From the sequence record ON528737: a stretch of DNA of 64,000 nt; one strand, 5' to 3'. The notes beneath the pieces were generated by a model. That model saw only the letters and a list, made by a program, of their open reading frames with translations, was not told where the DNA came from and searched no databases. Both the position numbers and the translations under genes were made by a program. Source of the DNA: Shigella phage ESh27. Every line of letters begins with the position of its first letter. The stretch's first letter is position 1. This document shows positions 10,931-61,746 of the stretch, piece by piece.

Positions 10931-10938
10931 TATAAATA
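10931..10938 (+). promoter_or_regulatory. T4-type late promoter (TATAAATA)
   Basis: exact TATAAATA about 30 nt upstream of gene 49. Confidence 0.5.
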
Positions 10939-13255: not shown

Positions 13256-13722
13256 ATTATGATAGATTTTATCCTTGCGATTTTGTGAATGGCCCTGGTT
13301 GCAGGGTCGTTCTTTTCGTTACAGGTTGTTTGCATAAATGCGAAGGGTGTTATAATAAATCAACATGGAATGCTAGAAATGGTATTCCATTCACCGGTGA
13401 AACACTAGAACAATTAATTGAATGTTTGAATAATGATTATATAGAAGGATTAACTATAACCGGAGGTGACCCTCTCTATCCTGACAACCGAGATGTTATT
13501 CATTCTGTGGTTCAAACTATTAAAAATATTTATCCAAATAAAAGCATTTGGTTGTGGACAGGATATAAGTTTGAAGATATTAAACAACTAGAAATGCTTA
13601 AATATGTTGATGTTATTATTGATGGGAAGTATGAGAAAAATCTTCCGACCAAAAAGCTGTGGCGAGGATCAGATAATCAGCGACTTTGGTCAAATACCAA
13701 TGGGGTGTGGAAACATGATTAA
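13252..13722 (+). CDS. nrdG: anaerobic RNR activating enzyme (radical SAM)
   Basis: 156 aa; Cys cluster CDFVNGPGCR...GCLHKCEGC. Confidence 0.85.
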   Translation: MNYDRFYPCDFVNGPGCRVVLFVTGCLHKCEGCYNKSTWNARNGIPFTGETLEQLIECLNNDYIEGLTITGGDPLYPDNRDVIHSVVQTIKNIYPNKSIWLWTGYKFEDIKQLEMLKYVDVIIDGKYEKNLPTKKLWRGSDNQRLWSNTNGVWKHD

Positions 13723-18059: not shown

Positions 18060-18240
18060 ACGTCTGAATCTGAACGCAGGGTTCACCCTTAAATTGGGAG
18101 GTCCTCTTTGTGTTAAAATTTCCGAAAAGGAATATCACGACGGTTCTATTACAGAAATTTGTCCGCCTATTGTAAAGGCAGACCCAAAACAACTCGTGTG
18201 GGTTGATTCATTTCAAGTTAAGAAATGGTGGAAACGATGA
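18034..18240 (+). CDS. hypothetical protein
   Basis: 68 aa; GAGGA SD 8 nt upstream. Confidence 0.4.
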   Translation: MALVQTKFKRLNLNAGFTLKLGGPLCVKISEKEYHDGSITEICPPIVKADPKQLVWVDSFQVKKWWKR

Positions 18241-18376
18241 TAACTTGGACAGGTGGCTAATGAAAGACGAACACCCGGATTTTTAAGCTTATGAATGACA
18301 AATACGAAAAAGTTTAAGGGGTCATATGAATGACGAATTTGACGGATTTTGATAAGATTAAATCTGATAAAAATGA

Positions 18377-18502
18377 GATGATACTTCAATTTGAAGCCGC
18401 TCGTATTAAAGCAGAAAATGAAGGTACTATTACCCGTAAGAAAATCAAGTTCAGGTATAGTCACGAACCTCTATACGGTGTATTAATTGGAAAGGAAGCC
18501 TA
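18377..18502 (+). CDS. hypothetical small protein
   Basis: 41 aa read by eye; weak SD; terminator immediately after. Confidence 0.25.
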
Positions 18503-18518
18503 GTGCTTCCTTTTTTTT
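18491..18518 (+). terminator. rho-independent terminator
   Basis: ggaagc-ctagt-gcttcc followed by TTTTTTTTT. Confidence 0.6.
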
Positions 18519-18566
18519 TGCTTTATATTCTGGATGATAAAATGAACCAACTAATGAGGAAAACAT

Positions 18567-18710
18567 ATGATTATATTTTTAGGTGTGACTATATTGATAT
18601 TAGCCTTCTATCTATTCACTAGGGCGTGTTGGATAGGTTTCTTTAGTACCCCAGATGGATTAATTTCTGTGGTTTTATTTTGCATTGCGATAACGGCGTT
18701 AGACTTATGA
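18567..18710 (+). CDS. hypothetical small membrane protein
   Basis: 47 aa, hydrophobic; GAGGAAAA SD; ATGA overlap with gene 47 start. Confidence 0.35.
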   Translation: MIIFLGVTILILAFYLFTRACWIGFFSTPDGLISVVLFCIAITALDL

Positions 18711-41417: not shown

Positions 41418-42440
41418 ATGGCTGAATGGATAGATAATGAATTTGCTTATCGTGCGTTTTCTCACCTCCCTCGTTTTAGACAAATCAATAATTCAAGCAC
41501 ATTTAAATTAACATTTCGTTGTCCAGTTTGTGGCGACTCTCAGACAGATGCAATGAAAGCTCGCGGATGGTATTATGGCGGTACTCCAGGTAATGTGCAT
41601 TGCTATAACTGCCAATATCATAATACGATTTCCGGATACTTAAAAGAGTATGATGAAGAGCTTTATCGCGAATATCTAATGGAAGTACGTAAAGAAAAAG
41701 CTAGAATGGAACCAAAGATTGAAAAGGTTCCTGAACATAAACCAGAACCGGAGAAAAAGACTATAAATTCTTTGCCGTCTTGTTCTCGTCTGGACAAGTT
41801 GCCTGAAGAGCATCCTATTGTGAAATATGTTAAGTCTCGTTGTATTCCTAAAGAATCGTGGAACAGATTATGGTTCACATTAGAATGGCCTAAATTGGTT
41901 AACAAGATTCAACCTGGTACGTATAAGAAAGAGATTCCTGAACCGCGTTTAGTGATACCTATTTTTAATAAAGACGGGAAGGCTGAGTCATTTCAAGGAC
42001 GTGCACTTCGCAAAGATGCTCCTCAAAAATATATCACTATTAAAGCTTTTGAATCTGCAACAAAAATTTATGGTGTTGAACGTGTTAAGGAAGGAGACGT
42101 CTGGGTAATGGAAGGCCCTATTGATAGTTTATTCATACCCAATGCAATCGCTATTACAGGCGGCTCAATAGATTTAGATGTGGTACCATTTAAAGAACGT
42201 CGGGTATGGGTAATGGATAATGAACCTAGGCATCCGGATACTATAGCTCGTATGAAGCGATTAGTAGATGCAGGCGAACGTGTTATGTTCTGGGATAGAG
42301 CTCCATGGAGATCAAAGGATGTGAATGATATGGTAATGAAAGAAAATGCAACACCACAAGAAATTTTAGAATATATGAAACAGAATATTTCAAGTGGGTT
42401 GCATGCTAAAATGAGATTATCTCGTTATTCGAAGATTTAA
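41418..42440 (+). CDS. 61: DNA primase gp61
   Basis: 340 aa; N-terminal zinc ribbon CPVCGDS...CYNC and TOPRIM region. Confidence 0.85.
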   Translation: MAEWIDNEFAYRAFSHLPRFRQINNSSTFKLTFRCPVCGDSQTDAMKARGWYYGGTPGNVHCYNCQYHNTISGYLKEYDEELYREYLMEVRKEKARMEPKIEKVPEHKPEPEKKTINSLPSCSRLDKLPEEHPIVKYVKSRCIPKESWNRLWFTLEWPKLVNKIQPGTYKKEIPEPRLVIPIFNKDGKAESFQGRALRKDAPQKYITIKAFESATKIYGVERVKEGDVWVMEGPIDSLFIPNAIAITGGSIDLDVVPFKERRVWVMDNEPRHPDTIARMKRLVDAGERVMFWDRAPWRSKDVNDMVMKENATPQEILEYMKQNISSGLHAKMRLSRYSKI

Positions 42441-42634
42441 ACAAGCCCTATAATAGCAAAGGCCAAATCAACTACAGTATCCAACGGAACAGAAGGAACT
42501 ATAACACCATTAGCAACTAACACCGGTGCAATCCCGAAGTTCCATGAAATAATGCCACCTACAACTATTGCAGCGATAGCAGTTTTCTTTTTATTGCCTT
42601 TAATAGCGTTGATTAACGATGGAAGTTTAAACAT
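42437..42634 (-). CDS. hypothetical small membrane protein (opposite strand)
   Basis: 65 aa, two hydrophobic helices; strong AAGGAGA SD 5 nt upstream on minus strand; convergent with gene 61. Confidence 0.45.
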   Translation of the reverse strand: MFKLPSLINAIKGNKKKTAIAAIVVGGIISWNFGIAPVLVANGVIVPSVPLDTVVDLAFAIIGLV

Positions 42635-42723
42635 AATATCTCCTTAGTTACCTTATTATTTATTACGCTTTATAAAATTAATGTTAGAATTAACTCTCTT
42701 ATACTGAATTGAAAGGAAAAATA

Positions 42724-43245
42724 ATGGCACACTTTAACGAATGTTCACAACTTATTTCTGGTGTTGATAAAGCAGAAGAAGCTTATTTTAATGCTCTGAT
42801 TCACGAAGATAAAGACCCACTGCAGGTAATGCTTGATATGCAGAAATCTTTACAGGTTCGTCTGGCGAATGACAAGCCTGAACATAACAAACATCCTGAT
42901 GAATTGGCCACTGCTGGCGATGTTGTTGATTGGCTGCGTAATCAGAAAGATTATATTGATGATGAATTCCGTGAACTGCTGACTTCACTTGGTGGTATGA
43001 GCAATGGTGAAAAAGCTGCCAGCAGTGTATGGAAGCCTTGGAAAGCACAACATGCTGAATTCCGTAATCGTCGTATTGATGAGTTGTCTCCTGAAGACCA
43101 GCTCGAAATTAAATTTGAGATGATTGATATCCTGCACTTTGTTCTGAACATGTTCCATGGCCTTGGACTGACTGCAGAAGAAATCTTTAAACTGTATTAC
43201 CTGAAAAACGCCGAGAACTTTGCTCGTCAGGACCGAGGTTATTAA
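42724..43245 (+). CDS. 56: dCTP pyrophosphatase gp56
   Basis: 173 aa; matches remembered T4 gp56 (MAHFNEC...DPLQVMLDMQ...EIFKLYYLKN.ENFARQD). Confidence 0.85.
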   Translation: MAHFNECSQLISGVDKAEEAYFNALIHEDKDPLQVMLDMQKSLQVRLANDKPEHNKHPDELATAGDVVDWLRNQKDYIDDEFRELLTSLGGMSNGEKAASSVWKPWKAQHAEFRNRRIDELSPEDQLEIKFEMIDILHFVLNMFHGLGLTAEEIFKLYYLKNAENFARQDRGY

Positions 43246-43526
43246 TGTCTCGTTTAAATAAACGTCAGCTTAAGAAAGCTCGTAAGAAGCATATTAATGC
43301 TATAATTGAAAACGCTAATGTTGAAATCTTTGTAGAACTCTTAGCCAATCAACTAAAAAATTTATCTAAACAAGAAATTGATATGAATACTGAAAATGCT
43401 AAAAATGTAATCGAAACTCATAATGTTTTTGCTCAAGCTACAGCCGAATACATTGCTAATCCTACTGCTGAAAATCTAGCTAAAATGACTGAAGCCAATA
43501 AAGCAGTCCAAGCTGCTAAATTGTAA
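43245..43526 (+). CDS. hypothetical protein
   Basis: 93 aa; basic N-terminus. Confidence 0.5.
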   Translation: MSRLNKRQLKKARKKHINAIIENANVEIFVELLANQLKNLSKQEIDMNTENAKNVIETHNVFAQATAEYIANPTAENLAKMTEANKAVQAAKL

Positions 43527-43528
43527 GT

Positions 43529-43536
43529 TATAAATA
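43529..43536 (+). promoter_or_regulatory. T4-type late promoter (TATAAATA)
   Basis: exact TATAAATA about 30 nt upstream of soc. Confidence 0.55.
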
Positions 43537-44975: not shown

Positions 44976-45156
44976 TATGGACCTTATGAGTATGTTTGAC
45001 GAGCCTGAAGTTGAGGCTCCTAAAGTGCATCGTAGTGAACTTGTTGATGAACTAGATAGTATTATACAACGTCATGGCTTTAGTTTACCATTAGAAGTCC
45101 TGAAAGACCTAGCCTCTTATTATGACGACCCGCCACCATGGAGTCCTTGGAAATGA
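44968..45156 (+). CDS. hypothetical acidic protein
   Basis: 62 aa. Confidence 0.45.
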   Translation: MNNMDLMSMFDEPEVEAPKVHRSELVDELDSIIQRHGFSLPLEVLKDLASYYDDPPPWSPWK

Positions 45157-45305
45157 AAGAGCAATTCTTAGTGGAAACCAAGAAAAAGGACTTTGAGATA
45201 TGGTATCGAATGGTGAAAGGGTTGGCATTGCTTCTTAAAGCATCACCATTCATGTTAGAACAACCTGGTCCTGATGGTCCTTTAGTCGGAAAGCTTAAAA
45301 AGTAG
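45153..45305 (+). CDS. hypothetical small protein
   Basis: 50 aa; ATGA overlap; read by eye. Confidence 0.3.
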   Translation: MKEQFLVETKKKDFEIWYRMVKGLALLLKASPFMLEQPGPDGPLVGKLKK

Positions 45306-45333
45306 TTTACAACCCCTCCTCTTATGTTATGAT
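45305..45333 (+). promoter_or_regulatory. early-type promoter
   Basis: GTTTAC-N17-TATGAT. Confidence 0.45.
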
Positions 45334-45360
45334 AGACTTATCTTTAAACGGAGGTCTATC

Positions 45361-45495
45361 ATGACATGTCAATCTGAACAAGAGTACATGGTCTCGGGTA
45401 TCTCTAAATTTGAGATTGTGGAAATTGAAGACTTAGAATATATCCCTTTATCTCGATTATACAAAATCATTCATTTGAAAATGTTGAATTTTTAG
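45361..45495 (+). CDS. hypothetical small protein
   Basis: 44 aa; GGAGGT SD; read by eye. Confidence 0.3.
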   Translation: MTCQSEQEYMVSGISKFEIVEIEDLEYIPLSRLYKIIHLKMLNF

Positions 45496-45524
45496 TGTAC
45501 AAACTCTTCCGATGATGATACTAT
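45496..45524 (+). promoter_or_regulatory. early-type promoter
   Basis: TGTACA-N17-TACTAT. Confidence 0.45.
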
Positions 45525-45552
45525 ACCTTTATCAACCATAGGAGAAACCTAA

Positions 45553-52179: not shown

Positions 52180-52359
52180 ATGCCGTTATACGACTATAAA
52201 TGTCAATCTGAAGATTGTGGTCATGAATATGAAAAAATTAAAAGGATTTCTGAACGAGAAAACGATGTTTGCCCTGAATGTCATCGTCTGTCTACTCGTC
52301 GGGTTTCTGCTCCTAAACATGTGAACGGTGGTTTTTACGACTTACTTAAGAAGGGATAA
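52180..52359 (+). CDS. zinc-ribbon protein (FmdB-like)
   Basis: 59 aa; MPLYDYKCQSEDCGHEYE...CPECH; read by eye. Confidence 0.4.
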   Translation: MPLYDYKCQSEDCGHEYEKIKRISERENDVCPECHRLSTRRVSAPKHVNGGFYDLLKKG

Positions 52360-61402: not shown

Positions 61403-61409
61403 TTTATAT

Positions 61410-61443
61410 AGGCCTATTAAGTTAGGCCTTTAATTTATTTTTT
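61410..61443 (+). terminator. rho-independent terminator
   Basis: aggcct-attaagtt-aggcct followed by T-rich tract. Confidence 0.5.
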
Positions 61444-61455
61444 GAGGTAATTAAA

Positions 61456-61602
61456 ATGGTAGCATGGATTATTGCATTGCTGTGTTGGTCGTTTTTATTC
61501 GTTAACACTTTAGTTACGGGCGAAACAACAGTATTTCAACAGGCCGTATCACAAGGTACCTTAGCAGTCTTAGCTCTTATTAACGTGTTAAAAGGCGAGT
61601 AA
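61456..61602 (+). CDS. hypothetical small membrane protein
   Basis: 48 aa hydrophobic; GAGGT SD; read by eye. Confidence 0.35.
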   Translation: MVAWIIALLCWSFLFVNTLVTGETTVFQQAVSQGTLAVLALINVLKGE

Positions 61603-61742
61603 TGATTAAGAAAATCTTAACAGGAGCCTTCGGGCTCTTGTTGTTGCTTACGGTTCTGTACTACGGTGTGATGTTTGGACTAATCCAAGTAGTGCTTTTC
61701 ATTTCAGATGTTATAATGGTTATTCGTTCATTAATATGGTGA
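61602..61742 (+). CDS. hypothetical small membrane protein
   Basis: 46 aa hydrophobic; TAATG overlap; read by eye. Confidence 0.35.
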   Translation: MIKKILTGAFGLLLLLTVLYYGVMFGLIQVVLFISDVIMVIRSLIW

Positions 61743-61746
61743 AAAT

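Follow-up and report, generated by a model that had tools for sequence, protein, structure and literature searches.

The 64-kb window analyzed here, a stretch of 64,000 nucleotides from Shigella phage ESh27 (record ON528737), very likely carries a real late-expressed membrane-protein gene on its minus strand, at 42437..42634 (65 aa; ATG-to-TAA ORF, stop codon included). By sequence comparison, this ORF is the Mosigvirus ortholog of RB69ORF029w and T4 dam.1 and is already known as an annotated hypothetical protein. Its novelty is therefore low, and as a discovery it is ordinary, since hundreds of genome records list the gene under that name. The interest lies instead in what appears to be an unstudied, conserved late membrane protein of T-even phages: few genes sit on the late-only strand inside the T-even early region, and this one is conserved in at least 8 genera.

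A single opposite-strand gene between the primase and dCTPase genes

Around the ORF, the DNA of the window is ~96% identical to that of RB69-like Mosigvirus phages (Shigella phage Shf125875 and Escherichia phage moha). The convergent neighbor is gene 61, encoding DNA primase (41418..42440, plus strand; PHROG 47, E 1.1e-101, and annotation in relatives), and the divergent neighbor is gene 56, encoding the dCTPase/dUTPase (42724..43245, plus strand; PHROG 173, E 6e-45, and annotation in relatives). A reading of this DNA made from the sequence only had described a 65-aa minus-strand ORF with an AAGGAGA Shine-Dalgarno, a stop overlapping that of gene 61, and an upstream region shared divergently with gene 56, and the ORF listing and the sequence agree with each part of this description. 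The Shine-Dalgarno lies at 42639..42645 on the minus strand, 4 nt before the ATG; the coding sequences of gene 61 and the ORF overlap by 4 nt, with both TAA stops sharing 42438-42439 within TTTAAA; and the 89-nt stretch upstream of the ORF, up to the gene 56 ATG at 42724, is common to both divergent genes. An AGGAG(G) element is found in nearly all orthologs, with GGAGG lacking the leading A in two.

The sequence-only reading had also proposed that this is the only credible opposite-strand gene, and both the strands of annotated genes in Shf125875 and a search of the window uphold that proposal. In Shf125875, one strand holds 89 of the 90 CDSs in 1-50 kb, the sole exception being the homolog of the minus-strand ORF, and every CDS in two more stretches (50-59.5 kb and 163-169 kb) is on that same majority strand. 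The window itself is tiled by plus-strand ORFs of at least 60 aa save for eleven short gaps, and when the minus-strand ORFs located in gaps were matched to PHROG, none had a family match except 42437..42634. Further minus-strand genes at 1590-1739, 18213-18464, 45080-45253, and 52186-52320 were considered and dropped for want of a family match.

The ORF belongs to a family confined to T-even phages of enterobacteria

The protein aligns over its full length (residues 1-65) with positions 1-65 of the 65-position profile of PHROG 2024, a family of unknown function (E 1.6e-26), and the identical protein sequence already stands in the databases under Shigella phage ESh27, as hypothetical protein URY13851.1. 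It is 94-98% identical to annotated Mosigvirus proteins. RB69ORF029w (NP_861719), at 94% identity, has the same length and position, convergent with gene 61 and with overlapping stops. T4 Dam.1 (ADJ39749, from phage T4T), at 55% identity, likewise faces gene 61 with overlapping stops, but its upstream neighbor is dam, whereas in the window it is gene 56. The copies in VR20-type Gaprivervirus genomes are ~49% identical. The earlier annotations as RB69ORF029w and T4 dam.1 had escaped the sequence-only reading.

A tblastn search returned matches in 692 phage records, covering T4-, RB69-, and VR20-type phages, and the ORF is intact at 80% coverage or more in 685 of them. Among the source names read, the protein is "hypothetical" or "uncharacterized"; the exceptions are a few automatic "holin" or "putative holin" labels and one record that names a homolog "putative head morphogenesis protein" without support. 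In the literature searched, we found no paper mentioning dam.1 or RB69ORF029w.

To look further afield, a family profile of 69 members (cluster representatives) was run against 1.84 billion representative proteins. The search returned nine proteins, four of them divergent and 60-68 aa long; all were family members, fragments, or low-complexity variants, with no tie to a known family. Orthologs are present in at least 8 genera (Tequatrovirus, Mosigvirus, Gaprivervirus, Dhakavirus, Jiaodavirus, Gelderlandvirus, Moonvirus, and Kanagawavirus), across which the homologs share 21-55% identity. The T4-like phages that carry the divergent members infect Klebsiella (Jiaodavirus), Salmonella (Gelderlandvirus), Citrobacter (Moonvirus), and Enterobacter (Kanagawavirus), and the family is confined to T-even phages of enterobacteria.

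Position is conserved together with sequence. Every ortholog occupies the opposite strand, either in the interval from the gene 56 region to the 3' end of the primase gene or one gene removed from that end, and we found the matching opposite-strand arrangement in T4T, RB69, VR20, KP179, Melville, CF1, CIP9, JS98, and metagenomic contigs. The JS98 (Dhakavirus) copy is present though unannotated. The 4-nt stop overlap with the primase gene is kept in most lineages, while the stops do not overlap in KP179 and in locus L024, and in the divergent lineage L019 the convergent neighbor is another gene and not the primase.

A second, tandem, unannotated copy of 46 aa (PHROG 2024, E 1.9e-17) is found in Gaprivervirus, at ~2266-2406 in VR20 (locus L005) and also in L011, L017, and L018. 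The cytoplasmic N-terminal part is missing from this copy, which is similar to the JS98-type single copy; an in-frame stop upstream suggests that it is a truncated duplicate.

Purifying selection argues that the ORF is translated

We compared the pattern of substitutions among homologs of the ORF. Within genera, dN/dS is 0.09-0.39 (Nei-Gojobori). Between genera, synonymous sites are saturated (pS 0.60-0.75), and the proteins are still 45-55% identical. Within three genera, 57 sites are variable, with the third codon position accounting for 33 of them and the second for 4, and the length changes among the 69 cluster representatives are in-frame only (3-residue deletions). The low dN/dS, the preponderance of third-position changes, and the restriction of indels to in-frame events all point to purifying selection, and therefore to translation of the ORF.

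For a chance ORF that is no gene, one could cite its shortness (65 aa), the AT-rich genome, and the absence of experimental support. However, a reading frame that is intact in 685 of 692 records, that recurs in at least 8 genera as homologs of 21-55% identity, and that shows dN/dS below 0.4, a third-position bias, and a conserved Shine-Dalgarno and promoter (see below) is hard to reconcile with chance; the comparative data effectively refute this explanation, and we regard it as vanishingly improbable.

A putative late promoter precedes the ORF in every lineage examined

On the minus strand upstream of the ORF, at 42657..42664 and 22 nt before the ATG, we found a putative variant of the T4-type late promoter box, AATAAATA, which matches 7 of the 8 positions of the consensus TATAAATA and has an A at -13. 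The late box of T4 spans -13 to -6 (PMC1524935), and by this rule transcription would start at 42651 on the minus strand, 6 nt 3' of the box, with a leader of ~17 nt. The A(-13) form is the commonest T4 late-promoter variant: among the T4 late sites listed by Geiduschek and Kassavetis, 32 of 50 are perfect and 9 of 50 have A at -13 (PMC2988020). In RB69-type late promoters, -13 is poorly conserved (Nolan et al. 2006, PMC1524935), and A at this position is tolerated in T4 and RB69 alike. The promoter HMM scan of Nolan et al. lists no late site here for RB69 (PMC1524935).

The box recurs throughout the family. In every lineage examined, the ATG is preceded at a distance of 12-33 nt by a NATAAATA or ATTAAATA box, with a strong Shine-Dalgarno in between; the upstream regions are otherwise unalignable between genera, yet each has a late-type box. 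The window shares AATAAATA with RB69, JS98, and some T4-type contigs, while T4 and loci L019 and L024 have GATAAATA, and VR20 and loci L022 and L023 have CATAAATA. KP179 has two boxes, CATAAATA at 12 nt and GATAAATA at 33 nt from the ATG; CIP9 has TATAAATA; and Melville and CF1 have ATTAAATA. In nearly all lineages, the box departs from the consensus at -13. The sequence-only reading had suggested that the gene might be late or independently regulated, and a late-promoter box upstream in every lineage examined makes late expression very probable.

The core of the box, ATAAATA, is rare in this DNA: the 64-kb window has 6 copies against 27.9 +/- 5.1 expected, a 4.6-fold depletion. These lie at 34-41, 406-413, 10931-10938, 13527-13533 (minus strand), 42657-42664 (minus strand), and 43529-43536, and five of the six are 22-31 nt before start codons. 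Besides the copy at the minus-strand ORF, the other four in this position are 24-31 nt before the starts of rI, a DUF7338 gene, gene 49, and soc, and the box before rI (68-370, PF24205) is the identical AATAAATA variant. In T4, rI, 49, and soc have late promoters. The sixth copy is antisense within nrdG and has no ORF. Only two copies in the 64 kb are on the minus strand, and we calculated the chance of one of the two falling in a slot 12-35 nt before this ATG as ~7.5e-4. Judged by this distribution, ATAAATA in the early region appears to be almost a late-gene marker.

Strand agrees with this assignment, in that the early and middle transcripts of T4 are all of opposite polarity to the late-only strand (PMC2988020), and we found no sigma-70-type promoter on the minus strand near the ORF. 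Since the late box is conserved, the motif is depleted elsewhere, and the other copies stand before gene starts, we infer a gp55-dependent late transcript from ~42651, and the minus-strand ORF is most likely a gp55-dependent late gene. Late in infection, RNA polymerase carrying the late sigma factor gp55 would start at the variant promoter AATAAATA (42657-42664) and make a presumably monocistronic mRNA with a short leader and a strong Shine-Dalgarno.

The late box adjoins a probable middle promoter of gene 56

On the plus strand, the shared upstream region holds a probable MotA-type middle promoter of gene 56 (42662..42690), with a mot-box-like CGCTTTA at 42666-72, a 12-nt spacer, and a -10 element TAGAAT at 42685-90. 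The homologous RB69 site, Pm:16038, has a score of 21.6 and is among the best-scoring middle promoters in the supplement of Nolan et al. 2006 (PMC1524935), and MotA is the probable activator of the gene 56 promoter. The minus-strand late box and this middle promoter thus stand back-to-back within ~35 bp (42657-42690).

We found no intrinsic terminator or hairpin on either strand in 41900-43300, and because of this, the late transcript would run antisense into the 3' end of gene 61. The functional product might then be a late antisense RNA that helps shut off the primase mRNA, with the ORF incidental or secondary. This explanation draws on the overlapping stops and on the lack of a terminator in that interval, and there are sites at which T4 transcribes both strands, though not at the same time (PMC2988020). 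On the other hand, the amino acid sequence is under purifying selection and all lineages have a strong Shine-Dalgarno; the convergent neighbor differs in L019, and the stops do not overlap in KP179 and L024. We therefore consider an antisense RNA function very improbable.

The protein is predicted to cross the inner membrane once

AlphaFold2, run on the 69-sequence alignment, gave a confident model with a mean pLDDT of 86.7 and helices at 3-11, 15-41, and 51-64. Hydrophobicity marks one membrane-spanning segment, ~18-41, and RB69ORF029w was given a single TM segment at 21-41 (TMHMM) and no signal peptide by Nolan et al. 2006 (PMC1524935). All five Lys residues are within the first 17 residues and there is no Arg, which by the positive-inside rule would place the N-terminus in the cytoplasm. 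The C-terminal helix (51-64) is only 14 residues long and has D52 and D56 in the window protein and E-K, E-Q-x-R, or E-H-x-K in distant members; being short and charged, it probably does not cross the membrane a second time but lies on, or re-enters, the periplasmic leaflet. On these predictions, the product is most likely an inner-membrane protein with one TM helix, beyond which a short C-terminal helix would sit on the periplasmic side. The prediction of a membrane protein in the sequence-only reading thus finds support in the hydrophobicity, the AlphaFold2 model, and the TMHMM prediction for RB69ORF029w. Its two hydrophobic helices fare less evenly: helices at 15-41 and 51-64 are indeed modeled, but only that at 15-41 has the length and hydrophobicity needed to span the membrane.

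The hydrophobicity of the first helix varies across the family, being marginal in the RB69 and T4 versions (Hessa sum +0.4 to +3) and strong in VR20 (-2.4). Two candidate family traits were considered and set aside: a SAR domain, as weak hydrophobicity is not conserved, and a lambda S-like dual start, as the M1/M6 pair of T4 is not kept in RB69 or VR20.

Conservation is densest in the periplasm-proximal half of the TM helix and the turn that follows. Among 14 diverse members, W31, P37, and G43 are invariant, N32, P47, and G63 are conserved in at least 90%, and residue 52 is always acidic. This gives a core motif, W-N-[FYL]-x3-P-x5-G-x3-P plus an acidic residue, which the window protein satisfies with W31, N32, F33, P37, G43, P47, and D52. 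In the predicted topology, a basic cytoplasmic N-terminus (1-17) would be followed by the TM helix (~18-41), carrying the invariant Trp31 and Pro37 and the nearly invariant Asn32, then by a Gly43/Pro47 turn on the periplasmic side, and finally by the C-terminal helix (51-64), with its conserved acidic start, on or dipping back into the outer leaflet. Since the invariant residues are periplasm-proximal, the protein is most likely to work through a partner that it binds on the periplasmic side of the inner membrane.

A late role at the envelope is the leading guess

Searches for a relative of known function gave little to build on. The window, T4, and VR20 proteins gave nothing meaningful when scanned against Pfam, NCBIfam, and PADLOC; a sequence profile search of the PDB gave only a chance match (NqrE, E 0.82); and Foldseek found no match in the PDB and only family members among viral models. 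Late timing, small size, and membrane location are circumstantial; across phages in general they are the marks of lysis control, envelope protection, or membrane-based assembly. Our leading guess rests on them: the protein may be an accessory factor, and no canonical holin, that adjusts what happens at the envelope late in infection (lysis timing, lysis inhibition, or late exclusion, for instance). We rank this possibility first and offer it tentatively, with well under even confidence. A more speculative form of the idea, to which we give about one chance in a few, is that the family is an overlooked part of how T-even phages control the envelope late in infection, perhaps a third regulator of holin T or of lysis inhibition, or else a late exclusion factor, and that its conserved W-N...P...G...P surface would be the working part, on the periplasmic side of the inner membrane.

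Among known lysis regulators, the T4 RI antiholin is similar in being small, with a membrane segment near its N-terminus and its C-terminal part in the periplasm, as predicted for the ORF protein. The two are not homologous, however, and the periplasmic globular domain of RI has ~70 residues, compared to ~24 residues past the helix here.

The sequence-only reading had floated a holin-like or exclusion-like role. A holin or pinholin-like lysis effector, permeabilizing the inner membrane at the end of infection, would also be a small membrane protein with a late promoter, as this one putatively is. The TM helix is weakly hydrophobic, Gly/Ala-rich, and SAR-domain-like in the RB69 and T4 versions, and pinholins and class II holins such as phage 21 S68 share the size, the late expression, and, in some members, such a helix; a few homologs also bear the automatic "holin" or "putative holin" labels. 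Holins cross the membrane with two full TM helices, end in a charged cytoplasmic C-terminus, often have a dual start, and are encoded beside an endolysin gene, and none of these traits is seen in the ORF protein. A single membrane-spanning helix is predicted, the protein ends in ...AFAIIGLV with no charged tail (all K/R being N-terminal), and the flanking genes encode primase and dCTPase, with no endolysin gene nearby. Adjacency to an endolysin or spanin gene is common for holins but not universal, and the T4 lysis genes are scattered. In addition, no lysis family in Pfam, NCBIfam, or PHROG is matched, nothing outside the family came up in the exhaustive profile search, VR20 (-2.4) does not share the weak hydrophobicity, and the labels are unreviewed annotations. 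T-even phages already possess holin T, which also counts against a second holin. On these sequence comparisons, the holin explanation is disfavored, and we hold it to be improbable.

We also weighed a superinfection-exclusion or immunity factor like T4 Imm, which would sit in the inner membrane and block secondary phage DNA entry or envelope damage. Imm, too, is a small inner-membrane protein of T-even phages, and in RB69-type genomes it is encoded ~3 kb away, as part of a neighborhood with imm and spackle. A predicted periplasm-facing conserved surface on a small inner-membrane protein would suit such a role, as would the restriction of the family to enterobacterial T-even phages. Nevertheless, the ORF protein has no sequence relation to Imm or to any other family (no Pfam hit at E <= 0.1; no Imm-like proteins among the profile-search hits), and the closeness to imm is absent in T4. 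Imm has two TM segments, and imm and sp are expressed early. The ORF, with one predicted TM segment, is on the late-only strand, while imm and sp are on the early/middle strand, and apparent late-only expression would be odd timing for exclusion. Altogether, we find an Imm-like function unlikely, though not negligible.

The gene is missing from the T4 reference annotation

In the T4 records NC_000866 and AF158101, a 310-nt unannotated gap lies at the dam.1 site. We found that the T4 ortholog is intact there, with its late box and Shine-Dalgarno, at 1239-1439 of the extracted loci (L007/L008) and unannotated; the JS98 ortholog (NC_010105) is similarly intact, with late box and Shine-Dalgarno, at ~1474-1674 (L032), and unannotated. 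The supplements of a time-resolved T4 transcriptome/proteome study and of a CRISPRi-ART fitness screen do not contain dam.1, and because these T4 data sets were built on a reference annotation without the gene, they do not cover it.

This gap bears on one more explanation, in which the protein either serves as a membrane-bound factor in assembly, for example of heads or tails at the inner membrane, or is carried in the particle as a minor component. Putative late timing would fit, as structural genes are also late, and mass spectrometry of virions against the T4 reference proteome would miss the protein because the annotation omits it. Among the records sampled, however, none labels the protein structural on experimental grounds, and it does not resemble known structural or chaperone families; a role in the particle or its assembly seems to us a poor prospect. 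Returning to overlooked envelope control, if that idea were true, the annotation gap would explain how such a factor was missed by sixty years of T4 genetics and by recent genome-wide screens.

Other features of the window

Three stretches of 340-440 nt each (18241-18679, 45157-45552, and 61403-61746) have no plus-strand ORF of at least 60 aa. Rfam detected no RNA family anywhere in the window, these stretches included, and their minus-strand ORFs have no family match; by sequence, they may hold small plus-strand genes or regulatory DNA.

After rI, at 438-995 on the plus strand, is the gene for a 185-aa DUF7338/PHROG 2143 protein with an N-terminal hydrophobic segment. This gene has its own canonical TATAAATA box and, upstream at ~371-404, a terminator-like hairpin with a T-run, and in Shf125875 other small genes take its place.
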